A DNA stretch of 62,412 bases, filler included, from Deltaproteobacteria bacterium (GCA_030698575.1; 8 parts of 8 records of this genome joined end to end with filler, not necessarily neighbours in it), one strand, 5' to 3'. Counted from the first letter of the whole stretch, positions 11,946 through 58,289 are shown. Numbers and translations: made by a program. Notes: a model not told the origin generated them from the sequence alone.

Positions 11946-13186
11946 TTCCAGAGTAAATAGTTGCCCATCACGAGGTACTCGAGGCCACAGGTGTAGAAGG
12001 TGCCGATGGCGTCGAGCGGCGTGTTCACAATGGGCTGACCCTTGACGTTGAAGCTTGTGTTGAGGAGCACCGGAACGCCGGTGAGCTTCCGGAACTCCTC
12101 GAGCAGTTGCCAGTACCGCGGGTTGGTTCCGCGCTCGACGAGATGGGGGCGGCAGGTGCCGTCGACATGGACGGTGCTCTGGATCTCCGGGCGCCGATCC
12201 TCCCTGGCGATGAAGGCATGGATCATGAAGGGGGACCGGTAAGGATCTTCCAGGTAGTCGGCCGCGTGCTCAGCCTGCATCGAGGGTGCGAAGGGCCTCC
12301 AGAGCTCCCGCCATTTCACGTCGCGATTCACCCGATCGCGCATGTCCGGCCCGGCCGGGTTCGCCAGAATGCTTCGGCCTCCAAGCGCTCGCGCCCCCAG
12401 CTCCATCGGGCCCTGGAACCACCCCACGATATGGTTGTCGGCCAGCAACTGGGCCGTGACCGCGCAGATGTCGTCGCTCCGTTCGTAGTTCTTCACGCGC
12501 GTCTTGCGGAGAGCCGTTTCGATGTCCGCTTCCGAATAGGACGGGCCCCAGTAGGCGTGGTCGAAGGGGCCGTCGGGGCGCCGTCCCGTCGTGCGGGTGT
12601 GCACCCATGCAGCCGCGCCGAGCGCGGTGCCGGCGTCGCTTGAAGCGGGCTGGACGAAGATCCCGTCGGTATATGGCCCGCGGAAGAGCACGCCGTTCAT
12701 GGAGCAGTTCATCGCGATACCGCCCGCCAGGCAGAGATTGCGGATGCCCGTGCGCCGCTGCAGGTAGCGATTCATGAGAAGCACGGCGCGCTCGAGCGTC
12801 ACCTGGAGCGATGCGGCCAGGCTCCGATGCTCATCGGTGAGCGGATCCTCCGGCCGCCGCTGGGGTAGATCGGCTATGAACTTGCTGAAGGCCCCTGGCC
12901 TGATTCGCGGGTAAGGCTCGTTCCAGTCAACGAAGGGGAGCACGTCCCCCTCGCCGTACGCGGCAAGCCCCATCACCTTTCCCTCGTCCGAGTGCGGCCG
13001 GAAGCCCAGCCGCGCGGTCACCTTCTCGTACATGTGCCCCCAGCTCGAGGAGATGGGGATGCTGTCGAGGATCTCGATCCGATTGCCCCTTCCGACGGCC
13101 AGCACGCCGGACTCGAACCCTCCCCGGCCGTCGAGCGAGATGATGTTCGCTTCCTCGAAGTCGGAGAGAAGAAAGGCGCTTGCGGC
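11942..13186 (-). CDS. NodU/CmcH-family carbamoyltransferase, 5' truncated
   Basis: EGKVMGLAAYG, LAGGIAMNC, GARALGGRSILA, RPFAPS, HVDGT, LNTSFN; frame open to the linker. Confidence 0.9.
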   Translation of the reverse strand, partial: AASAFLLSDFEEANIISLDGRGGFESGVLAVGRGNRIEILDSIPISSSWGHMYEKVTARLGFRPHSDEGKVMGLAAYGEGDVLPFVDWNEPYPRIRPGAFSKFIADLPQRRPEDPLTDEHRSLAASLQVTLERAVLLMNRYLQRRTGIRNLCLAGGIAMNCSMNGVLFRGPYTDGIFVQPASSDAGTALGAAAWVHTRTTGRRPDGPFDHAYWGPSYSEADIETALRKTRVKNYERSDDICAVTAQLLADNHIVGWFQGPMELGARALGGRSILANPAGPDMRDRVNRDVKWRELWRPFAPSMQAEHAADYLEDPYRSPFMIHAFIAREDRRPEIQSTVHVDGTCRPHLVERGTNPRYWQLLEEFRKLTGVPVLLNTSFNVKGQPIVNTPLDAIGTFYTCGLEYLVMGNYLLWK

Positions 13187-28279: not shown

Positions 28280-29233
28280 ATGACCCGCTCGCCCAGCGCC
28301 GCGCCGATTCCCCTGCTCGTGGTCGCGGGCCCGACGGGTGTGGGCAAGACGGAAATCAGCCTCGAGCTCGCCGAGAAGTTCGACGCTGAGATCGTCAGCG
28401 CCGACAGCGTCCAGGTCTACAGAGGGATGGACATCGGGAGCGCCAAGCCCACCCGCGAGGAGCAGGCCCGCGTGCCTCATCACGTCATCGACGTGGCCGC
28501 GCCTGATGAAGCTTTCAGTGCCGGGCGCTACGCAGAGCTGGCGGCCGTGGCCATCGAAGACATTACGGGAAGGGGCAAGCGCCCGCTGCTCGTCGGCGGC
28601 AGCGGCCTCTACCTGCGTGCGCTTCTCGAGGGGCTGGTGACCGGCGCATCCGCCGACCCCGAAGTGCGCCGGCTCATCGGGGAGCGGCTCACGAAGGAGG
28701 GCCTCGCGGCCGTCCGCGCGCGGCTCGAGGACGTGGATCCGGCATCGGCCGCACGCATCCATGCCAACGACGCCTACCGTATAGCGCGCGCACTGGAAGT
28801 CTTCGAGCTCACAGGTGAGCCGCTATCAGAGCTCCAGGAACGCCAGCGCCGCCTGCCCCCGGCCTATGATGCCCGCTGGCTCGGGCTCACGGAGGACCGC
28901 CCGGTTCTCTATGATCGAATCGAGGCACGTTGCGATCGGATGATCGCGGCAGGCTTTCTGGAGGAAGTAGTTCGCCTCCGGGAGGAGGGCTTTGGCCTCG
29001 ATCTCCGCCCGCTCCGCTCTCTGGGCTACCGCCAGATGGGGGATGTTGTCCGGGGCGAGCAGACGCTTCCGGAGGCGCTGGACGAGATGAAAAAAGAGAC
29101 GCGGCGATATGCGAAGCGCCAGATCACCTGGTTCCGCGCGCGGCCCGGAATCTCCTGGCTCTCCCCCACGAGAGAGCGGCGGGCAATCCTGGACAGCGCC
29201 CGCGTCCTGCTGGAAAGGGGCCGGGCGGCCTAG
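28280..29233 (+). CDS. miaA: tRNA dimethylallyltransferase
   Basis: [35 protein letters not shown]. Confidence 0.95.
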
Positions 29234-30036
29234 AGGCCGCTCGGCGAATACAGCGGCCCTCGCGCGCCTCGAGGCTCGGGCGGAGAAGCTCCGGCAGAAG
29301 ATCTATAAACAACTCTCGCCCTGGCAAAAGACCCAGCTCTCCCGGCATCCCCAGCGGCCGACGACCCTCGATTACATCGAACGTCTCTTCACGGATTTCG
29401 AGGAGCTCCACGGCGATCGCCTCTTCAGAGATGATCCGTCCATCGTCGGAGGGCTCGCGCGTTTCCGCGATCGTCCGATGGTCGTCCTGGGGCACCAGCG
29501 CGGGCGAACGGCGCGCGAGCGGACGATGCGGCATCGCGGAAAGCCGATGCCGGAGGGCTTCCGGAAATCCCTTCGACTCATGCGCATCGCCGAACGATTC
29601 GCCAAGCCCATCGTGACATTCGTCGACACGACGGGAGCCCATCCGGGGGCCGACGCCGAGGCGCGAGGCCAGGCCGAGGCAATAGCACGCAACTTGCGCG
29701 AACTGAGCGCCCTCCGGACGCCCATCGTAACCTTCATCATTGGGGAAGGGGGCAGCGGCGGGGCTCTCGCGCTCTGCGTGGCCGACCGCATCTTCATGCT
29801 CGAGTACGCCACTTTCAGCGTGATAAGCCCCGAAGGCTGCGCCGCGATCCTCTGGAGGCGGGGCGCACAGGGACCCTGACGCGGCCGCGCGCACCGTCGG
29901 GAGCGCGCTCGAGGAGGCCCTCGAAGAGTTGCGCGAAATTCCATTCGATGCGCTGCTTCAACAGCGCTACGAACGGCTGCGTGCCATCGGGGAGTTCATC
30001 GAAAATACTGCGGAAAGCCGGGCCCCGTCGACTTGA
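29234..30036 (+). pseudogene. accA: Acetyl-CoA carboxylase carboxyltransferase alpha, no start codon and an internal deletion with frameshift
   Basis: [43 protein letters not shown], then in another frame [10 protein letters not shown]...RYERLRAIG; the ~30 codons normally between are absent. Confidence 0.8.
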
Positions 30037-30428
30037 CACCTCCGGGCTGCTCTGTTACGCAGGGGTGTTTCCAGTAGGGGTAGAAAGGGGGCGTGGGCCC
30101 TGGTTTTCGCTCCCGCCCGCTCGGAAACCTCCCCATTGTTCTGATCAGCAAAGAGAGGACCTTCCGCGAGTGGCGTTGCGTGCCCGTGCAGGCGCGTCCG
30201 GCCCGGTGGCCGGATGGCTTTGCAGGGATACCCCCCGCCGCAGGCGCATCGGACGCGTGAAGCGCGTTCTTCTGGCGACAATCCGGATCCCGACGCCGAG
30301 GCGGATCGCGGCCCCTCGGCGCAAATCTCTGACTAGCCGATCCACGCGGACACACCCGCAAGCGCCAACTGGCGGCGGTAACCGCGTGGGAGGGCCAGAC
30401 TGCCGCCCCCCGGGCGGCGTCTGCCGCG

Positions 30429-31214
30429 ATGGTCCTCGGGATGATCGACAAGTACGTTGTACAGCCCGTCTACAACTTCTTCGACGAAGTGGGCAGAATC
30501 GTCCTCTTCGCGATGGAAGCGATCACGCTCCTATTCCGGCCCCCGCTCTTCTGGCGTGAAATCCTCACGGAGTCACATCACGTCGCCACCACCTGCATCA
30601 TTCCCGTCGTCTGCACAGTGGCTCCCATCGGGTGCATCCTCGCGATCCAGGCGCTGAACATTCTCAGGCCCCTGGGCGTTGAAAAGCTCATGAGCTCGAT
30701 GGTCGTCATCATCATGGTACGCGAGCTTTCCCCGGCCATGACGTCGATCATGATCGCGGCCCAGGCCGGGACGTCGATGGCCGCCGAGCTGGGCACGATG
30801 CGGGTCAAGGAAGAGATCGAGGCGCAGGATGTGATGGCCGTGAACCCGATCCAGTACCTCGTCATCCCGCGGTTCATCGCGCTCTTCATCATGTGCCCCA
30901 TTCTTACCGTGATCGCCTTCTTCGTGGGGATGGCCGGGAGCTACGTGATATCGGTGTACGTCGAAGGGGTGAACAAGGGCGCCTTCCTGACGGGTTTGTG
31001 GACCTACCTCGAAATGTATGACGTCGGCGGCGCCATCTTCAAATCCTGCGTCTTCGGCCTCGTTGTGGCGGTCATCAGCTGTTACAAGGGATTCTACGTG
31101 ACCGGCGGCGCGGCGGGGGTAGGCCGGGCTGCGAACGATGCGGTGGTCATCTGCATCACCACTTTCCTCATCCTCAACTACTTCCTCACTTCAATCCTCT
31201 GGATCACGATGTGA
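30429..31214 (+). CDS. mlaE: MlaE/YrbE-family ABC permease, copy 1
   Basis: RELSP, AGTSMAAELGTMRVKEEI, LVIPR, GAAGVGRA. Confidence 0.9.
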   Translation: MVLGMIDKYVVQPVYNFFDEVGRIVLFAMEAITLLFRPPLFWREILTESHHVATTCIIPVVCTVAPIGCILAIQALNILRPLGVEKLMSSMVVIIMVRELSPAMTSIMIAAQAGTSMAAELGTMRVKEEIEAQDVMAVNPIQYLVIPRFIALFIMCPILTVIAFFVGMAGSYVISVYVEGVNKGAFLTGLWTYLEMYDVGGAIFKSCVFGLVVAVISCYKGFYVTGGAAGVGRAANDAVVICITTFLILNYFLTSILWITM

Positions 31215-31242
31215 GGCCAGTTCGCAAGGGGCGAAACGGCAA

Positions 31243-32037
31243 ATGGTGAGGTTCGTCGAGTTCATCGGAGCGCTTTTTGGAAAAGTGCTCAGCGAAGTAG
31301 GGGCCATCGGGCTCTTCGTCATCAAGACCCTGAGCGTGGGGATCTCCACCTTTCCCAACCTCAAGCGGTTCGGCGAAGAGTGCTACAACATCGGCATCCA
31401 GTCCCTCTTCGTGGTGTGCAGCGTCGGGGCCTTCATCGGCATGAGCACCGCCCTGGTCGGCTACGCCACTCTCAAGGACCTCGGCGCCCAGAACCTGGTC
31501 GGTATCTTTATCGGCATCGCGAGCATTCGCGAGCTCGGCCCCGCTGTGGCGGCCTTCATGGTGGCCGCGAAAGCGGGATCGGGCATGGCCGCCCACATCG
31601 CCACAATGCGCGTGAAGGAGCAGATCGACGCGATGGAGGTCCAGGCGGTCAATCCCTTCTGGTATCTCATCGTGCCACGCTTTCTCGCGATCATGGTGGT
31701 GCTGCCGGTCCTCGTCGTCTGGAACGATTTCTTCATGCTCGGGACCGGCTATATGATCGCCGTCTTCCAGCTCAAGATCAACAGCGGCGCCGTGATGGAG
31801 AATCTCCTCTCCACGGTGGCCATGGCGGACATCTGGAAGGGCATGATCAAGGGCTGGGTTCTGGCTCTGTTCATCGTGAGCATCTGCACCTTCAAGGGAT
31901 TCACCTGTGAACCCGGGGCCCTGGGCGTAGGAAAGGCGACGAACCAGGCGGTGGTCTACTGCATCGCCATTCTGATTATCATCAACTTCTTCCTGAGCCA
32001 GTGGCTCTACGGCGGCATCGGCCTGCGCGGCATGTGA
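31243..32037 (+). CDS. mlaE: MlaE/YrbE-family ABC permease, copy 2
   Basis: RELGP, MRVKEQIDAM, GALGVGKAT. Confidence 0.9.
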   Translation: MVRFVEFIGALFGKVLSEVGAIGLFVIKTLSVGISTFPNLKRFGEECYNIGIQSLFVVCSVGAFIGMSTALVGYATLKDLGAQNLVGIFIGIASIRELGPAVAAFMVAAKAGSGMAAHIATMRVKEQIDAMEVQAVNPFWYLIVPRFLAIMVVLPVLVVWNDFFMLGTGYMIAVFQLKINSGAVMENLLSTVAMADIWKGMIKGWVLALFIVSICTFKGFTCEPGALGVGKATNQAVVYCIAILIIINFFLSQWLYGGIGLRGM

Positions 32038-32064
32038 GCAGCGCTCCGGAAGAAGGAGAAACAA

Positions 32065-32856
32065 TTGGCAAGCAAGGAAGAATTCCGGAAGTACGAAACG
32101 GGCGAGCCGATCGTGACGGTGAGGAATCTCTCCAAGTCCTTCGGCTCACTTCGCGTGCTGAAGGATCTGAACTGCGACATCAAGGCCGGCGAAACCACGG
32201 TATTCCTGGGGCCGAGCGGGACGGGCAAGTCGGTCTTCATCAAGCACATTGTCGGATTGCTCAAGCCGGACGAGGGTGAACTCGAGGTCATGGGGCGGAA
32301 CGTGCCGACCCTGGGGGAACGGGAGCTGTACGAACTGCGGAAGCATCTCGGCCTGGCCTTCCAGCTCGGCGCGCTCTTCGATTCGCTGAACGTCTATGAC
32401 AACGTTTCGTTCCCGCTGTCGCACCACACGCGCATGCGCCAGAAGGAGATCAAGAGCCGGGTCGCCGAAGTGCTCGAGCTCGTCGGCCTGCCCGGCACGG
32501 AGAACAAGCTCACGACCGAGCTCTCGACAGGTCAGCAGAAGCGCGTGGGGCTTGCCCGGGCGCTGGCCCTGAACCCGACCATCGTTCTCTTCGACGAGCC
32601 GACGACGGGGCTCGACCCGATCCTTTGCACGACCATCGACGAGCTGATTCTCAAGCTCAAGACGGAACTCGGCAAAACCTTCATCGTCATCAGCCATGAC
32701 ATCGAAGGCACCTGGAACATGGCGGATCAGGTGGGTGTGCTCTACCAGGGAACGCTTCTCAGGTACGGGCGAAACGCCGACGTCAGGCGCGACGACAACA
32801 TCTTTCTGAAGCAGTTCTTCGGGCGCACGGAAGACGGCCCCATGATCGGGGTTTGA
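32065..32856 (+). CDS. mlaF: MlaF/Mkl-family ABC ATPase, copy 1 (variant signature LSTGQ)
   Basis: GPSGTGKS, FQLGALFDS, LFDEPTTGLDP, ISHD; TTG start after AAGGAG. Confidence 0.9.
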   Translation: MASKEEFRKYETGEPIVTVRNLSKSFGSLRVLKDLNCDIKAGETTVFLGPSGTGKSVFIKHIVGLLKPDEGELEVMGRNVPTLGERELYELRKHLGLAFQLGALFDSLNVYDNVSFPLSHHTRMRQKEIKSRVAEVLELVGLPGTENKLTTELSTGQQKRVGLARALALNPTIVLFDEPTTGLDPILCTTIDELILKLKTELGKTFIVISHDIEGTWNMADQVGVLYQGTLLRYGRNADVRRDDNIFLKQFFGRTEDGPMIGV

Positions 32857-32908
32857 GCGGATTTCAGGGCGTCCCCGGCAACGCGCCGGGAGAGGGAGAC
32901 GAGATCTC

Positions 32909-33844
32909 GTGGGGTTTCTGGATCAAATCGCGAAGCAGTTCCGGGGCGAATACGCCTACACGCCGGAGCTCGTGCTGAAGGAGATGCGGGAGAAGGGGAT
33001 CAAGATCCGCGTCCGGGGGCTCACAAAGAGCTTTGGCGGGCTGACCGTGCTGAAGGATCTCGATCTGGATGTCTACGATGGCGAGACCCTTTGCATGCTC
33101 GGCGAGAGCGCATCGGGCAAGACCGTTTTCCTGAAGAGCTTGGCGGGGATCGAGCACCCCGATTCAGGCGAGATATACATCGATGAGCATGATGTCATGA
33201 ACGCGCCGCCCCGGCAGCTATACGAGATGCGGCTCGGCCTTTCCATGCAGTTCCAGCAGGGAGCGCTCTTCGAGAGCGTCTCGGCGCTCGAAAACGTTCA
33301 GTGGCCCCTGGTGATGCACGCGACGGTCTCCCCGCAGGAGGCCGAAGATCGCGCGGCGAAGGACCTGGTTTCGGTCGGGCTCACGCCGGACATGCACTGG
33401 AAGCTTCCCTCCCTACTTTCAGGCGGGATGCAGAAGCGAGTGGCGCTCTGCCGGGCGATTGTCGAGCGAAAGGCGCTCATCTTGTTCGATGAACCGAACG
33501 CCGGACTGGACCCCATCAAGTGCGCGGCCATCGACAACCTGCTTCTGCGTATCAAGAAGCAGTTCAAGGCGACTCTCATCATGAATACATCCGAACTCTT
33601 CACTGCTTATAACCTCTCGGATCGGATCGGCATCATCTACCGGGGAAAGATCGTGGAGATCGGGGAACCCGGATCGATCAAGAGCAGCAAGCACCCCTAT
33701 GTCGACGAGTTCACGCGCAAGTCCAAGGAATTCCTCCCCCAGATCCTGGCCTATCAAGAGGAGCTGGCCAGCTGGGAGGGTGAAAAGGTCGATGACGGCC
33801 GGCGCGATTCGGAGCATCTGGGGAAGACGACAGGCGGCTTCTGA
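32909..33844 (+). CDS. mlaF: MlaF-family ABC ATPase, copy 2 (H-loop His lost)
   Basis: GESASGKT, FQQGALF, LSGGMQKR, LFDEPNAGLDP, NTSE in place of SHD. Confidence 0.88.
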   Translation: MGFLDQIAKQFRGEYAYTPELVLKEMREKGIKIRVRGLTKSFGGLTVLKDLDLDVYDGETLCMLGESASGKTVFLKSLAGIEHPDSGEIYIDEHDVMNAPPRQLYEMRLGLSMQFQQGALFESVSALENVQWPLVMHATVSPQEAEDRAAKDLVSVGLTPDMHWKLPSLLSGGMQKRVALCRAIVERKALILFDEPNAGLDPIKCAAIDNLLLRIKKQFKATLIMNTSELFTAYNLSDRIGIIYRGKIVEIGEPGSIKSSKHPYVDEFTRKSKEFLPQILAYQEELASWEGEKVDDGRRDSEHLGKTTGGF

Positions 33845-33857
33845 AAGGAGCTATTCG

Positions 33858-34763
33858 ATGGCGGCGACCAGCAGGGTTTACAGAACCGAGCTCGTACTCG
33901 GGATCTTCCTCATCATCTCCCTGGCCATTCTCGCTTACCTGGCCATGCAGACGGGCGCGTTCATCGTCGAGGACAGGGTGAAGCTCGACGTTGTCTTCGA
34001 CGATGCCTCGGGAATCGTCACCGACTCGGCCGTCATGATCGCCGGCGTCCAGATCGGTCGAGTCGCGGGTCTCGACGTGGACCACAACCAGGCCATCGTG
34101 CACACGGAAGTGAACCGCTCGGCGAACGTCCGTGAGGACGTGGAGGCCCTCATCCGGGCGCGATCGCTCCTGGGAGAAAAGTACATCGAGCTCAAGCCGC
34201 AGTCCCGGGATGCGAAGATGGCGCCGGCCGACTTCAAGGTCCCCTCGAGCCATACGGGGTTCTCCACGGAGATCGATCAGCTGACAACGAAAATCGAGCC
34301 GTTGATCGACAAGGCGCTGGTCATCCTGAACAAGATCGACCCCGAGGATCCCGCAAAGGACAACCTCGTCAACAATCTGAACAGCCTCGCCGCCACCCTC
34401 TCCCAGGGACTGGACGGTAAGGGTCCGGCGCTCGGCAGCTTCATCGAGAACACCTCGAGCCTTACCGAACGGTTAGACGGGATCCTGGCGCGGAACGACA
34501 CGCGCATTGACCGCGTGCTCATCAATCTCGATTCTCTGCTCGCGGACGCAAACAACCAGAAAATCATCCTGGCGCTCAACGACCTGACCTCCACCCTGAA
34601 CCCCGTGATGGAGGATATCCAGCGCCGGAAGGTGATTCCGAAGCTCAGCGGGGTCCTGACACGCCTGGACGTCATCGCAGCCCGGGCGGAGCTGATCGAC
34701 GAAATGGCCATCCGCAAGTTCCTGCAGACTGAGGGAATCAAGGTGCACATTCGGGCCTACTAG
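33858..34763 (+). CDS. mlaD: MlaD/MCE-domain protein, copy 1
   Basis: N-terminal TM, FDDASGI, VMIAGVQIGRV, SLLGEKYIEL, helical C-terminal region. Confidence 0.9.
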   Translation: MAATSRVYRTELVLGIFLIISLAILAYLAMQTGAFIVEDRVKLDVVFDDASGIVTDSAVMIAGVQIGRVAGLDVDHNQAIVHTEVNRSANVREDVEALIRARSLLGEKYIELKPQSRDAKMAPADFKVPSSHTGFSTEIDQLTTKIEPLIDKALVILNKIDPEDPAKDNLVNNLNSLAATLSQGLDGKGPALGSFIENTSSLTERLDGILARNDTRIDRVLINLDSLLADANNQKIILALNDLTSTLNPVMEDIQRRKVIPKLSGVLTRLDVIAARAELIDEMAIRKFLQTEGIKVHIRAY

Positions 34764-34796
34764 CGGGAGCCCTATCAAAAAAACCGCTGCGGTGGG

Positions 34797-34802
34797 TATA
34801 AT
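34797..34802 (+). promoter_or_regulatory. Possible internal sigma70 -10 element upstream of the second mlaD
   Basis: Perfect TATAAT in an intergenic gap with an upstream A-tract; weak -35. Confidence 0.35.
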
Positions 34803-34862
34803 AGCCGCGCCCTGGAGAGTGGATGGAATTCACCTTCACGGCTGGCCGGACAGGGGGATGGG

Positions 34863-35771
34863 TTGGCAAGACCCAGGGACCAGATATGGAATCGCATGGC
34901 CGGGCTCGGGGCGATCATCGCCTTTTTGGCCTTCGCCTATATTGCCGTCACGAGCGGCTCCAAGGCCATGAAGGACGAGAAGAACGTCACCCTCTATGTG
35001 AGTGACGCGCTGGGCCTGGTCGAGAACTCGTCGGTCATGATCGCCGGTGTGGAGATCGGGAGGGTGACGACTCTCGCGGTCGCCCATGACAAGGCCAAGA
35101 TCATTATCGCCCTGGATCCCACCGAGCAGATCCCCAGACGGGTGCGCGGCGTCGTACGCGCCCGCTCGCTCCTCGGCGAGAAATTTCTCGAACTCATCCC
35201 GATGGATGCTGTGCCGGGCGGGGAGATCATGACCGGAGGCGAGGAGATCGGCGAGGAGGACACGTCAAAGACCCTCGAACTGGATCAATTTGCCACCGAC
35301 TTCGATCCCCTCATCGACCGCCTCGGGCGGTTTCTCGACAGCATCAACCCGCCCGATCCCGCCAAGCCGAACCTCATTGAGACGCTCGCTGACGCCACGG
35401 GTTCCCTGGCGGAGGGCCTCGATGGCAAGGAAGAGGCCATCGGCGATCTGGTGGTCAATCTGAACGACGCGGTAGTGCGCGCCGACGGCATCGTTGCCCG
35501 AAACAGCGAGCGGGGAGGGCGGGTCTTCGAGAACCTCGATGCCGTCCTTCTGGACGGCAAGCGAACCCAGATTGTACCTCGACTTTCAGAAGCGGCCTCC
35601 AGCCTGACCACCGTGGCCAGGGAGGTCGATAAAGACCAGACAGTGGCAAAACTCGACAAGGTGTTGGTCCGGTTGGACCCGATTCTGGCCCGGGCAGAGA
35701 TGCTCGACGAAACAGCGCTCCGGAAGTTCCTCCAGGTGGAGGGCATCAAGGGGCACATAAGAGCCTGGTAA
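34863..35771 (+). CDS. mlaD: MlaD/MCE-domain protein, copy 2
   Basis: N-terminal TM, VMIAGVEIGRV, SLLGEKFLEL; clear paralog of copy 1. Confidence 0.9.
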   Translation: MARPRDQIWNRMAGLGAIIAFLAFAYIAVTSGSKAMKDEKNVTLYVSDALGLVENSSVMIAGVEIGRVTTLAVAHDKAKIIIALDPTEQIPRRVRGVVRARSLLGEKFLELIPMDAVPGGEIMTGGEEIGEEDTSKTLELDQFATDFDPLIDRLGRFLDSINPPDPAKPNLIETLADATGSLAEGLDGKEEAIGDLVVNLNDAVVRADGIVARNSERGGRVFENLDAVLLDGKRTQIVPRLSEAASSLTTVAREVDKDQTVAKLDKVLVRLDPILARAEMLDETALRKFLQVEGIKGHIRAW

Positions 35772-35865
35772 GTTCAGCTTTCCCGGGGGATGAGCGCCCC
35801 GAGGCACAGCCTAGGTTGTGCCCGCCAACGCGGCGCTCTCGACCCCGGAGAGAAGGAGGAAGAAG

Positions 35866-37413
35866 ATGAGTGGGAAGGTGAGCAAGTTCCTGTTCGCGTT
35901 CCTGGTGGCGGGGCTCGTACTCGTGCCCGTCGCGCGGAACTTCGCGCAGGACATGCCGGAAGAGTCAGCGGTGGATCCCACCGTGGAAGCACCTACGCAG
36001 ATAGATTCAGAGACGACGGCTGCGGAGGTCGAGGAAGTCCAGCAGATTGAGGCAGAGTCCGTGGTGAAGGCGAAGGGCGGCATCGGACCCGAGAGCGGCC
36101 TGGGCGTCTTCAGCCGCCATGCGGACCCCGTGGTCCTCAAGGGCGAGCAGATCCCGAAATTCGCCGGTGCGACCGAGGACACCATCCGCGTCTTTGCCAA
36201 CAAGGACGGAAGCGGCCTGAAGCCTATTCCTTACCAGATGGACGAGCGCAATCAGTGGGGCGAATTCGTCGTGATCAAGGGCAAGCGCGTCGTGGCGGAT
36301 GAGGACGAGGGTGCCTTCGACGAGAACGACGAGGTCGTCTTCCTGACGCGAGACCTGGGCTCGAAGGCGGCCAAGGACAGCTGGCCGTCGGGTTTCAAGG
36401 AGGCCTACGAGGTCGAGGTCACCGATCCGCTGACCTCGGTCAAGGGCTACGCCTACGTGCTGAGCTACGCGAGCGCCAGCGCGGCGCCGGCCCCTTCGAC
36501 GGATGACTACATCAGCTACGAGGAGAAGGGCCAGGGCGTGACCCACGCAATGAGCTACGAGCTGGGCTTCGTGAAGCCCGCCTCGGGTCTCGACTATGAT
36601 CTTCTCACCGTCATGCCGGCAGCCGGGGGCAGCGGCAAGGACTGGTTCGACCGCCTCAAGGTGCGCGTGTTGCAGAACCTCAAGCGGTTCATGACGCTGG
36701 GAATCCCGACCCGTCTCGACCGGACCGAGAAGAACTTCCTGGTCAAGGTCTACGGTTACAAGGACGGCCCCGTGCGCGTGCTCCGGGTGATGAAGGTCAA
36801 CCTTCAGCTCATCTGGAAGCTTCCCGCTCCGGGCGCCACGGTCAACTCGGTCTTCTATCCTGAGTGGATCGAGTGGCCGGTGCCGGTCAACCTGCCCTTC
36901 AAGCCCAGCTGGGCCTTCTACAACGTCGAGCTGGACGTCTCCCACGACTACGACTTCGGCGTGAACGATGGCGTGAAGGTGTACAACTCGAAGGACCAGA
37001 GGTGGGATGTCGTCGACGGCAAGATGACGCCCGAGGAGACGGCGGTCAACAAGGCTGACGTGCGGGGAAGCTACTACGGCTTCGACGCCACTGCGGCCGG
37101 CCACGGCGCGGGCTTCTACACGGTGAGGCCCCCGAAGAGCTTCTCGGCGTCCCTCATTGGGCTCTACAACGACTCGACAGAGGTCGGGGTCGAGCCCGAG
37201 TACTACGAGGGGGACGGCAACAAGAAGGACAGGGAGGAAAATATCGCGGGCGCGCTCCCCCTCGCCGGCGGCCGCTTCGTGAACTGGGACGACGTGGGGA
37301 AGGGCATCCACACGATCTTCTGGTACCACTTCTACCCGCCGTTCTATACCCTCGGGAAGGAGAAGGCCTTCCTGGACATCATCGATCATCCCATCTCCGT
37401 GACGGTCAACTGA
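35866..37413 (+). CDS. Exported protein of unknown function, paralog A (MCE-operon associated)
   Basis: ATG after AAGGAGG; signal peptide ending NFA-Q; strong GC3 bias; no recognisable family. Confidence 0.85.
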   Translation: MSGKVSKFLFAFLVAGLVLVPVARNFAQDMPEESAVDPTVEAPTQIDSETTAAEVEEVQQIEAESVVKAKGGIGPESGLGVFSRHADPVVLKGEQIPKFAGATEDTIRVFANKDGSGLKPIPYQMDERNQWGEFVVIKGKRVVADEDEGAFDENDEVVFLTRDLGSKAAKDSWPSGFKEAYEVEVTDPLTSVKGYAYVLSYASASAAPAPSTDDYISYEEKGQGVTHAMSYELGFVKPASGLDYDLLTVMPAAGGSGKDWFDRLKVRVLQNLKRFMTLGIPTRLDRTEKNFLVKVYGYKDGPVRVLRVMKVNLQLIWKLPAPGATVNSVFYPEWIEWPVPVNLPFKPSWAFYNVELDVSHDYDFGVNDGVKVYNSKDQRWDVVDGKMTPEETAVNKADVRGSYYGFDATAAGHGAGFYTVRPPKSFSASLIGLYNDSTEVGVEPEYYEGDGNKKDREENIAGALPLAGGRFVNWDDVGKGIHTIFWYHFYPPFYTLGKEKAFLDIIDHPISVTVN

Positions 37414-37448
37414 CCGGTTCGGTGAATATGGGTATCGTCTAGAACGCC

Positions 37449-37513
37449 ACCGGGGGCGGCGCTGAACCAGAGCCGCCCCCGGTTTCTCGACGGGGGCGCG
37501 GGGTTCCGCGCCC
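37449..37513 (+). terminator. Intergenic double hairpin (terminator, attenuator or stabiliser)
   Basis: ACCGGGGGCGGC/GCCGCCCCCGGT 12-bp stem then TTCTC; second stem GGGCGCGG/CCGCGCCC. Confidence 0.5.
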
Positions 37514-37527
37514 ACAGGAGTTCACTC

Positions 37528-38997
37528 ATGGCACGGTTCTCACTCAGGCTCTTCCTCCCGCTACTCGTTCTCGGGCTCACGCTCATTCCCGTGGCGCGCA
37601 ATCACGCCCAGGACGCCCTACCACCCGCTGATGTGCCCGATGCGGTCGCCGTGGCTGTGGCCGACGAGGCGCCTTCCACCACGGCCGCAGCGTTTTTTTC
37701 ACGACAGGCCGATCCGGTGGTCATCAAGGGCGAGCAGCTGCCCGCTTTCCTCGGCTCCACCGAGGACAAGATGCGCGTGTTCGCGAAGCGCGACGGCAAG
37801 CTCCGGCCCATTCCCTACCAGATGGACGAGCGGAACCAGTGGGGGGAGTTTGTGCTCCACCACGGCAAGCGCGTTGTTCCCGATGAGGACTCAGGCGAGT
37901 ACGACGAGAACGACGAACTCGTGTTCATAACCCGTGATCTCGGCGCCAAGGCGCCCAAGAGCGAGTGGCCGACGGGGACGAAGGAGGCTTTCGAGGTCGA
38001 GGTGACCGACCCACTGACGTCCGACAAGGCCTACGCCTACGTAATGCTGTACGAGACGGCTTCCGCGGCTCCGGCGCCGTCCACGGTGGACTACGTGACG
38101 TACGAGCAGAAGGGCGGAGGGTTGATCCGCGCGACGAACTACGAGATCGGTTGGCTCAAGTCGTCCTCGGGGCTCGATTACAACCACCTCGTCGTGACGA
38201 AGGAGGCCGGCGGCGACAATATCAATCACTTCGACAAGCTCAAGATCCGGGTGCTGCAGAACCTCCGTCGGTTCCTGACGCTGGGTCTCTCACCCCGGCT
38301 CGACCGGAGCGAGGAGAATTTCCTCGTCAAGGTCTACGGCTACCGCGACGGCCCGGTGCGCGTGCTCCGGGTCATGAAGGTCAACCTCCAGCTCGTCTGG
38401 AAACTTCCGGCGCCGGGTGCGACGGTGAACTACGTCTTCTACCCGGAATGGATGGAGATCCCGGTTCCCATCAACCTGCCCTTCAAGCCGACCTGGGCCT
38501 TCTACGACCTCGAGCTCGACACTTCGCACGACTACGACTTCGACCCGAAAGCCGGCGTGAAGGTCTACAGCTCGAAGACCGACCGCTGGGATGTGGTGGA
38601 CGGCAAGATGAGCCCCGAGGAAACGGCGGTGAACAAGGAGGAGGTGAAGGGAACCTACGCCGGCTATGACGGCTCCGCCGCCGGCGTGGGGTCTGCGTTC
38701 TTCACCATCCGGGCGCCCAAGAGCTTCCCCGTGAAGATCCTCGGACTCTACCTGGATGACCCGGAAGACGGGCTCGAACCCGAGTATTATGAGGGCGACG
38801 GCAACAAGAAGAATCGGACAGAGTGGATCAAGGGGTCCTCTTTCCTGGGTGGATACCGCTTCATCGACTGGGAGGGTGTCAGCAAGGGGATCCACACCGT
38901 CTACTACTACCAGTTCTATCCTCCCCACTATAAGCCGGGGGGTGAGAAAGCGTTCCTGAACATCATCGATCATCCGGTCGCGGTCAGCATCAACTAA
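37528..38997 (+). CDS. Exported protein of unknown function, paralog B
   Basis: AGGAG RBS; signal peptide ending NHA-Q; long blocks identical to paralog A. Confidence 0.85.
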   Translation: MARFSLRLFLPLLVLGLTLIPVARNHAQDALPPADVPDAVAVAVADEAPSTTAAAFFSRQADPVVIKGEQLPAFLGSTEDKMRVFAKRDGKLRPIPYQMDERNQWGEFVLHHGKRVVPDEDSGEYDENDELVFITRDLGAKAPKSEWPTGTKEAFEVEVTDPLTSDKAYAYVMLYETASAAPAPSTVDYVTYEQKGGGLIRATNYEIGWLKSSSGLDYNHLVVTKEAGGDNINHFDKLKIRVLQNLRRFLTLGLSPRLDRSEENFLVKVYGYRDGPVRVLRVMKVNLQLVWKLPAPGATVNYVFYPEWMEIPVPINLPFKPTWAFYDLELDTSHDYDFDPKAGVKVYSSKTDRWDVVDGKMSPEETAVNKEEVKGTYAGYDGSAAGVGSAFFTIRAPKSFPVKILGLYLDDPEDGLEPEYYEGDGNKKNRTEWIKGSSFLGGYRFIDWEGVSKGIHTVYYYQFYPPHYKPGGEKAFLNIIDHPVAVSIN

Positions 38998-39074
38998 TCG
39001 GCGGCGCCCCGCGCGCCAGCCTAGGCGAGCCCCGAGCCCGGGTCGCGGGCAGGGGGCGCAGAGGGGAGACCTAC

Positions 39075-39148
39075 ATGAAGCGGCCTGGCATCGTAACACT
39101 GAACGCGATCATCAACCTTTTCTTCGGGGTCGTGTTCACCTTCATCAA
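39075..39148 (+). CDS. N-terminus of a membrane protein, truncated by contig end
   Basis: GGGGAG RBS then MKRPGIVTLNAIINLFFGVVFTFI. Confidence 0.5.
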
Positions 39149-39248
39149 NNNNNNNNNNNNNNNNNNNNNNNNNNNNNNNNNNNNNNNNNNNNTTAATTAA
39201 TTAANNNNNNNNNNNNNNNNNNNNNNNNNNNNNNNNNNNNNNNNNNNN
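39149..39248. other. Artificial contig linker
   Basis: N-TTAATTAATTAA-N. Confidence 0.98.
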
Positions 39249-40504
<1,256 letters not shown>

Positions 40505-54472: not shown

Positions 54473-55483
54473 CTAGGCGAGATCCTCCGGTCCAATGGGT
54501 TCGTTTCGGTGAACGGCGCGGCGGAGGCGCTTTCCGAGCAGTCGCTCGGCCTCCAGGGGGCCTATGCCGAGCGGGACACGGCGCTTGAAGTCCACGTGCT
54601 CCAGCGTGAGCAGTGTCCCTTCGGCGAGATCCTCGCGCGCCACCAGCGTCTTGCGCGTGCTTTCGCGCCAGGCGAGTTCTTTCGCCGTGGGCCTGCGGAT
54701 CGCCTCGCCGAGCGAGACCTCGGCGTTGCGGATGTCCTCGACCATCTTCTTGAACTCGCCGGGCTCCAGGGCCGACACCCAGTCGTATCGCTTGGCCGCG
54801 CGGTCGGTGGTGAAATGTTTCTCGATGGCCATGGACCCGGCGCCCACGCTCGCCAGCGCCGCTACACTGTCCGTCGTGTGGTCATTGAAACCCACGGGGC
54901 GGTCGAAGATCTCCTGGTAGCTCCGGATCACGCGCAGATGCATGTCGGCGTAGTGGGAGGGGTGATCCTGGAAGCCGTGGAGCAGCACGATCTGATCGTT
55001 GCCCGCCGCGGTGATGCGCTCGATCGCGAACTCGATTTCGCCGAGCGTCGTCATGCCCGTGTGCAGGAGCAACGGGACGCCGGTCCGGGCTGCATGCTCG
55101 AGCAGGTAGGGGTTCACCAGGTCGCCGGCGTGGAGCCGGAAAAAAGGGGTTCCGATGGCGACCTGCAGGTCGACGCTCGGAGGGTCGAGCACGTCAACGC
55201 AGAACGAGATGCCGTTGTCCGAGGCGCAGAATCGGAGATCCTTCCACTCCTGCTTGGTGAAGCGCAGCTTCTGGTAGACCCCGTACCACTCGTAATCCGG
55301 GACAGCGAAGGCGTCGGCGTCCATGCACTGGAACTTCACGGCGTCCGCACCGGTGGCCGCCGCGGCACGCACCATCTCCATGGCGATGGCGTGATCGCCG
55401 GCGTGGTTGTTGGCCCCCTCGGCGATGATGTAAACGGGCTCGCCGGGGCCGACGCGCTTTCCGTCCAGCACAACGGGCTTCAC
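54473..55483 (-). CDS. NeuB/PseI-family paralog with degenerate active site
   Basis: IIAE, DAVKFQ, IEKHFT, C-terminal SAF/AFP-like domain; substituted PEP and metal motifs. Confidence 0.85.
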   Translation of the reverse strand: MKPVVLDGKRVGPGEPVYIIAEGANNHAGDHAIAMEMVRAAAATGADAVKFQCMDADAFAVPDYEWYGVYQKLRFTKQEWKDLRFCASDNGISFCVDVLDPPSVDLQVAIGTPFFRLHAGDLVNPYLLEHAARTGVPLLLHTGMTTLGEIEFAIERITAAGNDQIVLLHGFQDHPSHYADMHLRVIRSYQEIFDRPVGFNDHTTDSVAALASVGAGSMAIEKHFTTDRAAKRYDWVSALEPGEFKKMVEDIRNAEVSLGEAIRRPTAKELAWRESTRKTLVAREDLAEGTLLTLEHVDFKRRVPLGIGPLEAERLLGKRLRRAVHRNEPIGPEDLA

Positions 55484-55525
55484 TTGGCGCTCTCCTCTCC
55501 TGCGCTGGCCGGGCGCGCGGCGCCC

Positions 55526-56581
55526 TCAGGCGATCTTGTCCCAGGTGAGCGGATCCTGGGACCGGATGTCCACCGCCGCGCGCCTGCCGACAACCCGATC
55601 GAGGAAGCGCGGCTCGAGGCCCGTCCCGGGCCGGAGGATGGCCAGCATGTCCTCGCGGATGAGGGCGCCGGCGGGAATGTCCGTGGCGGCGAAGATCGAG
55701 CGCCGACCCATCACGAAGCTCCCCTCCTCGGAGGGGAGCCGGTGCTTCACGGGACTCCCGAGCGCTTCCTCGCACTCGCGGACGCCCTGCACCAGCGCCT
55801 TGAGCTCGTCCGGCTCGATGGAGAAGGGGTGATCGGGCCCCGGCATGTCCCGGCCCAGCGTGAAGTGTTTTTCGATCATGTTTCCGCCGAGGGCGGCGGT
55901 CACCACGGCGGCGGTGATTCCGTTCGAGTGATCGCTGTAGCCCACCGGGACGCCGAAGGCGCGCTTCATCGCCGGGATGGCGCGCAGGTTCAGCTCCGTG
56001 AACGCGGCCGGGTAGCTTGCGGCGCAGTGAAACAGGGCGACCTCCTTGCAACCCCCGGCTTCGGCTGCCTCGAGCGCCGGCTCGATGTCAGCCAGGTTCG
56101 CCATCCCCGTCGAGATGAGAAGGGGTTTTCCGGTGGCCGCCGCATGACGGATGAGCGGAAGGTGCCACAACTCGTAGGAGGCGATCTTGTAGGCCGCCAG
56201 ATCGAGCTTCTCGAGATCGTCCACCGCCTCCTCGTCGAAGGGCGTGCAGAGGAAGATGAGCCCTTTCTCCTCGCTGTAGGCCTTGAGATCCCCCAGCCAT
56301 TCCGCGGGGAGCTCCATCTGCTTGTAGACCTCGTGCATGCTCCCTGACTCGGGGAACATCTTCTCGATATAGGGGTGCTTTTCGCGCATGCGCGCGACGA
56401 TCTTGTCCGCGGTGAAAGCCTGGAACTTGACCGCGTCGGCGCTTGCCGCGGCGGCGGCGTCGATGAGGCCCAGGGCCGTCTTCATGTCGCGGTTGTGGTT
56501 CGACGACGCCTCGGCGATGACGAAGAAGGGATGGCCGTCGCCAATCGTCCTGGGGCCCGCCTTTACTTCGGGACGGAGCAA
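55526..56581 (-). CDS. pseI: Nonulosonic acid synthase (PseI/NeuB family), canonical
   Basis: IAEASSNHN, CTPFD, YKIASYE, ISTGM, GYSDHS, IEKHFTL, PDHPFS, LRPG; TTG start. Confidence 0.88.
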   Translation of the reverse strand: MLRPEVKAGPRTIGDGHPFFVIAEASSNHNRDMKTALGLIDAAAAASADAVKFQAFTADKIVARMREKHPYIEKMFPESGSMHEVYKQMELPAEWLGDLKAYSEEKGLIFLCTPFDEEAVDDLEKLDLAAYKIASYELWHLPLIRHAAATGKPLLISTGMANLADIEPALEAAEAGGCKEVALFHCAASYPAAFTELNLRAIPAMKRAFGVPVGYSDHSNGITAAVVTAALGGNMIEKHFTLGRDMPGPDHPFSIEPDELKALVQGVRECEEALGSPVKHRLPSEEGSFVMGRRSIFAATDIPAGALIREDMLAILRPGTGLEPRFLDRVVGRRAAVDIRSQDPLTWDKIA

Positions 56582-56585
56582 GGGC

Positions 56586-58289
56586 CTAGCCCTCCTCTCC
56601 GACGAGCCAGTTGCCGATCGCCAGGCAGTCGACGTTTTCCTTCTGGAAGGACTGCACGGCGTCCTCGGGGGAACAGACGATCGGCTCCTCGTGGTCATTG
56701 AAGGAGGTGTTGATGATGGCGGAACGGCCCGTCTTCTGATGGAAGGCCTTGATGAGATCGTGATACTCGGGGTTCTGCTCGCGAGGGACCACCTGCGGCC
56801 GCGCCGTGCCGTCGACGTGAACGGTGGCAGGGGCGCTTTCCTTGAACTCAGGCGTGCAGTCGTAGCAGATCGTCATGAAGTGGCTGGCGATGTGATCCGG
56901 CCGCCAACCCACGAAGCTCCGCGCCGCCAGCGCGGGGATCGTGGCCGGCGCGAAGGGCATGAACTCGGTGCGGTGGAGCCGCTTGTTGAGCCAGTCGTTG
57001 ACGGTTTTATCGGCCGGGTGGACGAGGATGCTGCGCGCGCCCCGCGCGCGCGGACCCCACTCCATCCGCCCCTGGAACCAGCCGACGACCTTTCCCCGGG
57101 CGAGGAGATCCGCCGTTTCGGCCACCTTGTCCCTGAAGGGACGGTAGGTGAGGTTGTAGGCGTCGAGAACCTTCTTGATCTCCTCGTCGCTGAAAGACGG
57201 ACCGAGATAGACGTCCGCGATGGGGCGCTGGATCCGGTTGCCCGTCTCGGACAGAAAGTTGAGCGTGGCGCCGACCGAGAGCCCGCCGTCGCCCATGTTC
57301 GGATAGACGAACACGTTGTCGACGCCCTCGAGGGCGAGAATTCGCTGGTTGAGTTTCACGTTTCCGAAGAGCCCGCCGGCGAGACAGATGTTCTCGACGG
57401 GCGCGCCCGCGTCCGCCTGCTCCTTCAGGAATCGCCGGATGTAGGCGAGCATCACGTCCTCGAGGTGCTGCTGGCAGGCGGCGGCGATGTCCTCCTTCGA
57501 GAACCCGGAAAGCGCCTCCTTGAGCGCGGGAGGCGGGTCGGTGAAGAAGGGCTTGTACATCCGGCCGATCTTCGCGTAGATGTTCCCGTCCGTGAAATCG
57601 ATCATCTCCCGCATCACATGGATGGCTTTCGACGGGTCGCCGTAGGCCGCGAGCCCGGTGACCTTCCCCTCGTGACGGACGGGGCGCATGCCGAGGATGA
57701 AGGTGATCGTCGAGTAGTAGAAGCCGAGGCTGTCGAAACTCGACCGCCAGTCCAGCTCGGTGATCTTCTCCCCCTCGCCGAGGTGCACCGTCGCGCTCCG
57801 GAAATCCCCCCGCGCGTCGGCGGTGAAGCAGAGCGCCCGGTCGAAGGGGCTCGTTAGAAACGCCGTGGCCGCGTGAGAGAGGTGGTGATCGTAGACGCGG
57901 AGTTTCGAGGTCCACCCCTGTTCGGCGGCCACGCGCGCCATCTCGTCCTTGCGTACCTGATCGCGCTCCAACTCCACCCGCACCCTGGTTTCGACCAGTT
58001 CCGCGCAGTCCGGTTGTTCCTGCACGGCGCGGATCATGCGCTTGCTCAACGGGCCGAGGAGTTTGTGCTCGTCGAACTCGCGCCCCCAGCCGTAGGCCAC
58101 CGCGTCGACCTCCGAGGCCTTCAGGCCGCCCATCGAAAGGACGTACTCGATGGCCCGCCAGGGGAAGGCGTCGTCCTGCTTTCTGCGGCTGAATCGCTCC
58201 TCGTTGGCGGCCGCCACGGTTTTTCCGTCGATGGTGAGCGAGGCGCCGCTTTCGAAGGCGTTCGAGAGGCCGAGCACGATCATGGACAT
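56586..58289 (-). CDS. NodU/CmcH-family carbamoyltransferase
   Basis: EERFSRRK, HHLSHA, EGKVTGLAAYG, MPFAP, HVDGTARPQ, INTSFN. Confidence 0.92.
   Translation of the reverse strand: MSMIVLGLSNAFESGASLTIDGKTVAAANEERFSRRKQDDAFPWRAIEYVLSMGGLKASEVDAVAYGWGREFDEHKLLGPLSKRMIRAVQEQPDCAELVETRVRVELERDQVRKDEMARVAAEQGWTSKLRVYDHHLSHAATAFLTSPFDRALCFTADARGDFRSATVHLGEGEKITELDWRSSFDSLGFYYSTITFILGMRPVRHEGKVTGLAAYGDPSKAIHVMREMIDFTDGNIYAKIGRMYKPFFTDPPPALKEALSGFSKEDIAAACQQHLEDVMLAYIRRFLKEQADAGAPVENICLAGGLFGNVKLNQRILALEGVDNVFVYPNMGDGGLSVGATLNFLSETGNRIQRPIADVYLGPSFSDEEIKKVLDAYNLTYRPFRDKVAETADLLARGKVVGWFQGRMEWGPRARGARSILVHPADKTVNDWLNKRLHRTEFMPFAPATIPALAARSFVGWRPDHIASHFMTICYDCTPEFKESAPATVHVDGTARPQVVPREQNPEYHDLIKAFHQKTGRSAIINTSFNDHEEPIVCSPEDAVQSFQKENVDCLAIGNWLVGEEG

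Follow-up and report, generated by a model that had tools for sequence, protein, structure and literature searches.

A fully paired MCE-type transporter operon with complementary ATPase motif changes and two exported proteins of an uncharacterised family

We analysed a stretch of DNA of 62,412 nucleotides, filler included, from a Deltaproteobacteria bacterium (GCA_030698575.1), in which parts of eight records of the genome are joined end to end and which we call the window. The subject of this report is an operon at positions 30429-38997 of the window, where eight intact genes, all on the + strand, follow one another in the order E1, E2, F1, F2, D1, D2, A and B. They encode two MlaE-family permeases, two ABC ATPases, two long MCE proteins and two exported proteins, and thus a doubled set of the core components of an MCE transporter, a class of systems that transport lipids and other hydrophobic compounds through bacterial envelopes. 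The two ATPases carry complementary changes in their ATP-site motifs which, taken together with the geometry of ABC ATPase dimers, point to a heterodimer with one canonical and one degenerate site. With moderate confidence, we read the locus as one asymmetric MCE-type ABC transporter for hydrophobic cargo, with A and B acting at the outer end of its tunnel.

Gene content of the operon

The permeases E1 (30429..31214, 261 aa) and E2 (31243..32037, 264 aa) are multi-pass proteins that match the Pfam family PF02405 (MlaE) at 228.1 and 219.1 bits, far above the cut-off of 22.5 and spanning profile positions 2-211 of 212. The ATPases F1 (32065..32856) and F2 (32909..33844, 311 aa) match PF00005 (ABC_tran) at 110.9 and 95.2 bits against a cut-off of 25, and the MCE proteins D1 (33858..34763, 301 aa) and D2 (34863..35771, 302 aa) match PF02470 (MlaD/MCE) at 60.5 and 54.3 bits against a cut-off of 25.1. 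The exported proteins A (35866..37413, 515 aa) and B (37528..38997, 489 aa) have no match in Pfam (E<=0.01) or NCBIfam. For the other six proteins, NCBIfam points to the same families as Pfam. These eight open reading frames (ORFs) and their Pfam matches bear out the original prediction for this DNA, which had described two MlaE, two ATPase and two MlaD proteins encoded together with two exported paralogs. The starts of three genes were revised using alignment with a second genome, described below, and Shine-Dalgarno-like sequences: E2 now begins at 31243 (ORF start 31138), D1 at 33858 (ORF start 33699) and A at 35866, as in the original prediction.

The members of each pair share 37% identity over 241 aa (E), 39% over 242 aa (F), 40% over 289 aa (D) and 68% over 434 aa (A and B). 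To judge by these identities, the members of the first three pairs are old paralogs. The intergenic gaps measure 13-114 nt and therefore leave no room for a further gene inside the operon. A Pfam scan of the eight operon proteins and 15 flanking ORFs gave no match to MlaA, MlaC, STAS or PqiC-type families (ORFs shorter than 150 aa elsewhere in the window lay outside the scan), in agreement with the earlier statement that no MlaA/B/C or PqiC is recognisable. That this absence marks missing partners was, on the other hand, an overstatement: MlaEFD systems with a long MlaD usually come without MlaA/B/C and are given as the majority form in diderms (PMC10665443, Grasekamp et al. 2023). The absence is thus expected here and is not by itself a call for "missing partners".

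Complementary motif changes in the two ATPases

F1 has canonical Walker A and Walker B motifs and a canonical H-loop, together with a deviant signature, LSTGQ. F2 is a divergent ABC ATPase with the signature LSGGM, in which the His of the H-loop is replaced by Ser. We surveyed these motifs in the window and second-genome proteins, in close relatives from two database searches and in 204 other MlaF-like proteins from the same searches. The signature LSTG[Q/E], with Thr at the third position where LSGG is expected, is present in all 16 F1 orthologs, each of which keeps the H-loop His. Ser stands at the H-loop His position in all 22 F2 orthologs, each of which keeps LSGGM. Neither change was seen among the other MlaF-like proteins, where the signature Gly and the H-loop His are both canonical in 204 of 204. 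The Walker B Asp-Glu pair is retained in F1 and in F2; replacement of the catalytic Glu, as in degenerate-site heterodimers, was not found, with FDEP in 22/22 F2 orthologs.

ABC ATPase dimers sandwich each ATP, with one subunit contributing the Walker A and B motifs and the H-loop, and its partner the signature (PMC9541285). Given this head-to-tail geometry, the defects of F1 and F2 would share one composite site, and the other site would be fully canonical. Only the F1-F2 heterodimer retains an intact site, because each homodimer would carry two impaired ones. An F1-F2 heterodimer is, on these motifs, well supported, and the two sequences show the pairing of an altered H-loop with an altered signature in the partner subunit by which degenerate-site heterodimers are recognised.

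The MlaF equivalog model NF008809 (cut-off 441 bits) was not reached by F1 (194 bits, its top NCBIfam row) or by F2 (126.3 bits, not its top row), and the nearest solved structure is MceG (8fed_G) for F1 (210.6 bits) as well as for F2 (162.4 bits). Besides the window's own entry, F2 has 20 relatives at 70-78% identity, followed by a next match at 44%, and 14 further F1 orthologs were found in public collections. The two ortholog sets are similarly narrow in distribution.

Conservation and selection in a second genome

An independent genome, a metagenome-assembled genome (MAG) labelled Thermodesulfobacteriota (locus L001), carries the same layout: a gene for a sigma-54 activator, mutL, miaA, accA, E1, E2, F1, F2, D1, D2 and A. 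The one-to-one orthologs of the two genomes are 68-88% identical, and cross-paralog identity is 36-41%; for example, E1 is 88% identical to E1 of L001 and 36% to its E2, and E2 is 83% identical to E2 of L001. The ratio of nonsynonymous to synonymous substitution rates (dN/dS) of the seven shared genes is 0.09-0.26 at dS 0.8-1.25, with values of 0.089 for E1, 0.114 for E2, 0.200 for F2 and 0.264 for A. All seven are under purifying selection. The shared layout, the ortholog pattern and the purifying selection together imply that the doubling is older than the split of the two genomes and that both copies have been maintained. The source labels of close relatives are Myxococcota and Thermodesulfobacteriota.

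These data bear on the explanation that the doubling is an assembly artefact, either a two-strain chimera or a collapsed or duplicated contig. The window probably comes from a metagenome assembly, and accA, just upstream of the operon, seems broken by a frame change with about 31 residues missing, both of which would suit such an origin. However, paralogs of 37-40% identity are far from strain variants, the same gene order up to A recurs in an independent genome, and public collections contain another 20 F2 and 14 F1 orthologs. We regard an artefact as exceedingly improbable.

Permeases and MCE proteins

The permeases belong to the MlaE family at large and fall short of its narrower models. 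The MlaE equivalog NF033619 (cut-off 315 bits) was not reached by E1 (162.6) or E2 (176.1), nor was the subfamily model TIGR00056 (196.6 and 183.5 bits against 212.2). E1 has five or six hydrophobic segments. Its nearest solved structures are YrbE1A of Mycobacterium smegmatis (117 bits) and then Pseudomonas aeruginosa MlaE (111 bits), whereas those of E2 are proteobacterial MlaE proteins (122-110 bits), with YrbE1A/B at 59 bits.

D1 consists of a transmembrane helix (residues 12-30), an MCE domain, a helical extension of about 150 aa and a conserved C-terminal peptide, and D2, which likewise has a single N-terminal transmembrane segment, is laid out in the same way. Neither reached the MlaD equivalog TIGR04430 (75 bits for D1 and 51 for D2, cut-off 135) or the actinobacterial Mce paralog family TIGR00996 (99.7 and 101.6 bits, cut-off 140.5). 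The nearest solved structure of D1 is Mce1B (8fed_B, 58.2 bits over residues 11-275), and those of D2 are Mce1D (39.4 bits) and Mce1B (37 bits), with MlaD at 22.7 bits. By a crude periodicity measure, 105 of 133 amphipathic windows in D2 residues 135-285 are of helix type; in the MCE domain, taken as a control, 49 of 66 are of strand type. Long MlaD tunnels have been described, and some long MlaD proteins without a barrel of their own are predicted to make up a six-stranded barrel with one C-terminal strand per subunit (PMC10665443).

The last 25 residues are near-identical in D1, D2 and both of their L001 orthologs and end in Tyr or Trp. In the PA3211-PA3214 system, the last seven residues of the MCE protein PA3213 bind a groove of the operon-encoded outer partner PA3214 (PMC13631591). 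Apart from this shared tail, 56 alignment columns are constant within orthologs yet differ between D1 and D2.

The exported proteins A and B and their family

A has a hydrophobic N-terminus, an acidic linker and a conserved body of about 435 aa. Its paralog B resembles it in having a single N-terminal hydrophobic segment, an acidic linker and no Cys. The two belong to a large family, whose loci are spread over many diderm phyla and which numbers 1343 cluster representatives at E<=0.001, or 609 with the stricter threshold of E<=1e-10. A hydrophobic N-terminus is present in 144 of 160 members with a Met start, and a lipobox-like motif in 6 of 160. Periodicity is mainly strand-like. The residues Q98, D100, D129 and R278 are invariant in the family and all kept in B, and many acidic positions are near-invariant. 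The family also has a DxDxGxxDxNDE-like acidic stretch and is a candidate new domain family.

The family could not be attached to a described one. A search of 81 members against Pfam at E<=1 and NCBIfam returned only chance one-member rows (best E 0.049 and 0.035, respectively), the family profile found no solved structure by sequence at E<=10, and A and B had no tblastn match on plasmids. The best named lead in the atlas, PcRGLX_1st, stood at 0.75, below the meaningful level, and was set aside; the other hits were "hypothetical protein" clusters. A PqiC- or PA3214-type lipoprotein identity found no family match, and A and B contain no Cys. Nor do they resemble outer-membrane beta-barrels: both end in Asn, an F, W or Y end occurs in 13 of 172 members, and no barrel family of Pfam matches A or B. 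Compared by hhalign, the family profile and the D1/D2 alignment match with a probability of 0.25%, so that A and B show no profile similarity to the MCE proteins of this operon.

In the tree, 26 close relatives of A and B group together on a long stem (support 100*). This clade comprises an A-type group of 20 rows, including the window's A and the L001 copy, a B-type group of four rows, and a third type, which includes the second paralog of the genome to which L001 and the locus L002 belong. Two or more family copies occur in 11 of the 81 sources that we surveyed (80 loci and the window). In our reading, A was recruited into the operon from a stand-alone exported family, and B is a later local copy.

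Several relatives of A and B stand in settings worth recording. Among three of them (P0026, P0028 and P0165), two are tandem fusions of two A/B-type domains and one has the domain ahead of an Omp85 barrel (residues 495-826); these arrangements hint that the domain works in pairs and in the context of the outer membrane. The extra paralog of the L001/L002 genome (L002, 7099-11072) is followed by an uncharacterised ORF of 298 aa and by genes for an ABC ATPase and a membrane protein of the UPF0014 family, which is a small ABC system of another kind. The MAG chromosome CP070770.1 (L012, 2228-16410) has three family genes interspersed with beta-oxidation-type genes, namely those for an enoyl-CoA hydratase, a 3-hydroxyacyl-CoA dehydrogenase, three acyl-CoA dehydrogenases and an acyl-CoA synthetase, and is the only locus so dense. 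A general link of the family to beta-oxidation was rejected, such genes being present in 9 of 81 sources and at least two kinds of them in only two. In CP070751.1 (L063), titled as a Thermoplasmata archaeon, an N-terminal family match (33% over residues 46-172) lies beside an ABC ATPase; this may be a mis-binned contig or a fragment. At two distant loci (L038 and L041), family genes are followed by radC and mutL. The MCE operons of the window and of L001 have a mutL gene ahead of them as well; this resemblance may be chance.

Proposed assembly and its alternatives

We infer a diderm transporter whose plan would be that of a mycobacterial Mce system, simplified to two-fold. E1 and E2 would form a heterodimeric permease, and F1 and F2 a heterodimeric ATPase. 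The canonical ATP site would combine the Walker A and B motifs and H-loop of F1 with the LSGGM signature of F2, and the degenerate site the Walker A and B motifs of F2, with Ser for the H-loop His, and the LSTGQ signature of F1. This second site would probably bind ATP and regulate or hold the dimer rather than turn over. D1 and D2, with one helix anchor each, are predicted to build a mixed hexameric MCE ring and then an alpha-helical tunnel across the periplasm that ends in the conserved C-terminal peptide. A would be an exported, mostly beta-type protein recruited from its large uncharacterised family, and B a younger copy in this lineage. Both would most likely work where the tunnel ends on the outer side, serving as a receptor, as a cap or in cargo handling and possibly gripping the C-terminal peptides of D1 and D2. 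Such a grip is conceivable by analogy with PA3211-PA3214, given the conserved tails of D1 and D2. A and B are encoded where PqiC, PA3214 and MlaC-type accessory proteins normally sit. The original prediction called the system an importer, which overstates the case, since nothing in the present data shows import.

The heteromeric E1E2-F1F2-(D1/D2)6 arrangement of that prediction is backed in part. For F1 and F2, it agrees with the complementary motifs and with the paired gene order kept in L001. An E1-E2 heterodimer and a mixed D1/D2 hexamer are suggested by extension from F1 and F2, from the paired gene order and from the 56 columns that distinguish D1 from D2.

A number of observations weigh against the model, some concerning its transporter core and others, given further below, the place of A and B in it. 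The operon context was seen in two genomes only, those of the window and L001. As the Walker B Asp-Glu pair is kept in both ATPases, the odd site may hydrolyse ATP after all. The evidence for a heteromer is direct for F1 and F2 only, and D1 and D2 could form alternative homohexamers on the same core. Finally, in the tree F1 falls among ordinary MlaF-like proteins and is not sister to F2. The stem of F2 is long (1.3 changes per column, against 0.76 for F1), and a single clade of F1 and F2 was not rejected by the approximately unbiased (AU) test (p 0.33). An origin of the pair by local duplication would be compatible with this test and is not supported by the tree.

The separation of F1 and F2 in the tree would suit two independent homomeric MlaEFD-type transporters, E1-F1-D1 and E2-F2-D2, with genes interleaved by chance. 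There are precedents for multiple sets in one genome: Francisella novicida has two separate mlaDEF sets that act independently, double mutants being more sensitive to sodium dodecyl sulphate than single ones (PMC3312209), and many deltaproteobacterial genomes have 2-5 separate MlaE/MlaD/MlaF sets (PMC10665443, Supplementary Dataset 1). However, the genes are ordered pair by pair (E1E2 F1F2 D1D2) and not set by set in both genomes, and homodimers would be spoiled, that of F1 in both signatures and that of F2 by the lack of any H-loop His. F1 and F2 orthologs are also equally narrow in spread and share longest-contig values in the protein database: 4588, 5063 and 5678 are common to F1 and F2 entries, 16140 and 36194 to F2 and A/B-type entries, and 9203 to F1 and A/B-type entries, which we take as an indirect sign that the genes reside together. 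Two separate transporters are, in our judgement, improbable. The original prediction had named two interleaved or misassembled EFD operons as a way in which it might fail, and the pairwise order and the one-to-one orthologs in L001 do not bear this out.

The place of A and B in the model is less secure. It was assessed by a neighbourhood survey of the 80 loci and the window, in which at least 2 kb of sequence upstream of the A/B gene was available in 66 of the 80 loci and at least 5 kb in 52. Relatives of A and B sit away from MCE genes in 65 of the 66 loci with at least 2 kb upstream; the one with MCE genes nearby is L001, which is also the only one among all 80. Searches with the E and D proteins of the window found relatives only in L001 at E<=0.001, and E and D profiles found MlaE and MCE genes only there, apart from the window itself, even at E<=10. 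The E query is sensitive across phyla, matching proteins of Escherichia coli, Acinetobacter, Pseudomonas and Mycobacterium at E values of 1e-15 to 1e-34. A Pfam control on 115 neighbour ORFs of 180-700 aa from 15 loci, taken from 205 in 24 loci with ORFs above about 700 aa and later loci left out, found no Mla or Pqi family. The family has no conserved neighbour: the best real cluster was present in 11 of 81 sources, and the second-largest cluster (12 sources) was discarded as the antisense of the A/B gene itself. The extra A/B paralog of the L001/L002 genome is some 6.5 kb off, behind five unrelated genes, including those for a CoA-transferase and an SDR protein, der and brkB. In addition, A and B are without lipobox or Cys, unlike PqiC-type partners.

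It is possible on this evidence that the transporter is heteromeric and that A and B lie outside it, as members of a stand-alone exported family that are merely on the same transcript or act elsewhere in the envelope; the gaps of 94 and 114 nt ahead of A and B would also suit this explanation, which we hold to be doubtful while giving it appreciable weight. Against it, A directly follows D2 in both genomes with visible context and is under purifying selection, and in the tree the operon-linked proteins stand apart as a clade with a long stem. No terminator-like site was found in the gaps before A (35772-35865) and B (37414-37527), and terminator-like sites over 29000-39600 are at chance level overall (8 against 7.6 expected). 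The position of A and B is, moreover, that of accessory envelope proteins in other MCE systems (PMC13631591). The original prediction had made A and B the missing partners of the transporter. This is not established: homologs of the two proteins occur mostly away from MCE operons in the family at large, and what speaks for the claim is the strongly supported operon-linked subclade and the recurrent position of A.

We keep A and B at the outer end of the tunnel in the favoured model of one asymmetric transporter. A stricter version of it, an obligately asymmetric MCE machine with a non-hydrolytic F2 site as regulator and a hetero-hexameric D1/D2 tunnel whose C-terminal peptides are gripped by A-type proteins as a new, non-lipoprotein class of outer partner, appears unlikely to us.

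If this stricter version is true, an orphan family with over 1300 representative clusters across diderm phyla would gain its first function. With no relative in Pfam, NCBIfam or the solved structures, this large exported family has in its one operon link, to a lipid transporter, a first functional lead. A heterodimeric ATPase with a degenerate site would bring the exporter design of "one working, one regulatory ATP site" to the MCE class, and a system with two MCE genes, not six, would be a simple model for why MCE rings become heteromeric.

Flanking genes and transcription signals

The operon lies at an ordinary chromosomal site with housekeeping flanks. Upstream are mutL, miaA and accA, and downstream, on the opposite strand, phoH and genes for a DUF4388 protein and a TPR protein. 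The wider window contains a ribosomal protein and tuf cluster as well as sugar-nucleotide and glycosyltransferase genes.

Compared with AccA of L001, accA of the window (29109-30036) seems broken by a frame shift near 29857-29865. About 31 residues (249-279 of L001 AccA) are unmatched, and the C-terminal 56 residues run in another frame to a stop at about 30036. As accA is essential, an assembly error is more likely than a pseudogene.

A promoter-like element, TTGACA-N17-TACGCA (30033..30061, + strand), lies directly 3' of accA and about 370 nt before E1, and is the best-conserved block of the accA-E1 spacer in the alignment with L001. It is matched once in the window, a count that is no independent test, since the pattern was first drawn from that alignment. 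A generic consensus scan of 29000-39600 found no promoter-like site where 2.0 were expected. A sigma-54 promoter was considered and rejected, with none upstream of E1 and 19 matches in the window against 18 expected. An Rfam scan of the window found no family, and the folding of a possible leader RNA upstream of E1 is not unusual (z -1.21).

Two carbamoyltransferase genes were observed elsewhere in the window, both on the - strand. The ORF at 11942-13105 (387 aa) matches the C-terminal domain and, of the N-terminal one, just the final part, and may be truncated or mis-started; that at 56586-58289 (567 aa) is full length. The neighbouring region 54473-56698 (- strand) has two adjacent NeuB-family genes together with cytidylyltransferase, aminotransferase and methyltransferase genes, and looks like a nonulosonic-acid sugar pathway.

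Comparison with known systems

To our knowledge, the MCE transporters studied so far are either fully homomeric (Mla, Pqi, Let and TGD) or heteromeric only in their permease and MCE parts (mycobacterial Mce). The mycobacterial Mce1 system (YrbE1A/B, Mce1A-F and MceG; PDB 8fed) is a close parallel in having two different permeases, MCE proteins that differ from one another, and a helical needle (PMC9882608), and its proteins are the nearest solved relatives of E1, D1, D2, F1 and F2. The present operon differs from it in having two MCE genes instead of six after the two yrbE-type genes, which sets it apart from actinobacterial mce operons as defined, and two unlike ATPases encoded within the operon instead of a single MceG homodimer whose gene lies outside it. 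Genes of the Mam, LucA or LucB type were not recognised here, E2 is nearer to proteobacterial MlaE, and the D proteins, of about 300 aa, are without large portal regions.

The MlaEFD systems of the Veillonella parvula type share with the operon an E-F-D core without MlaA/B/C and a helical MlaD extension thought to bridge the envelope (PMC10665443). They are homomeric (2:2:6), whereas the present operon has two diverged versions of each component and one predicted degenerate ATP site. With the E. coli MlaFEDB-MlaC-MlaA system, the operon has the MlaE, ABC ATPase and MCE families in common, but no MlaA/B/C was found among the scanned proteins, the MCE proteins are twice the length of MlaD, and the equivalog models were not reached. 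The PA3211-PA3214 system of P. aeruginosa and PqiABC likewise have a gene for an exported protein after the MCE gene, and the former binds its partner through the C-terminal peptide of the MCE protein (PMC13631591). The conserved tail of D1 and D2 recalls that of PA3213; A and B, however, are non-lipoproteins of about 440 aa from another family.

For the ATPases, the parallel lies among exporters of the PatAB and TM287/288 type, in which one ATPase has an altered H-loop and its partner a replaced second Gly in the signature. The degenerate site of PatAB has Gln in the H-loop of PatA and SAGQ for SGGQ in PatB (PMC9541285). Those proteins are fused half-transporters of the exporter fold, and their degenerate site usually alters the Walker B Glu, which F1 and F2 both keep.

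Paired genes are also on record for Bradymonadales. Supplementary Dataset 1 of PMC10665443 lists, for three of three Bradymonadales genomes, two MlaE proteins whose accession numbers follow directly on one another, and in two of the three, two MlaF and one MlaD belong to the same run of six numbers. Bradymonadales clusters of interest lie around RAL23808-23813 and RDV38992-38997. This implies the order F-E-E-?-F-D, in which a single MCE protein is listed and one protein stands in no Mla column, adjacency being read from accession numbers only. Consecutive MlaE numbers occur in none of the 19 other deltaproteobacterial rows of part 24 and in none of the 14 non-actinobacterial rows of part 1. 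In the main text of that paper we found only a general remark on duplications in Gracilicutes, and the Bradymonadales pairs seem to be undiscussed there. No account of an MCE system in which ATPases are paired or an ATP site is degenerate came up in a full-text literature search. The statement of the original prediction that the architecture is not recognised as described needs to be qualified in view of these Bradymonadales clusters, with their paired permeases and, in two genomes, two ATPases. In relation to the known systems, what is new is the complete pairing of E, F and D and the complementary degenerate ATP site, together with an orphan family, that of A and B, for which the operon provides a first contextual lead.

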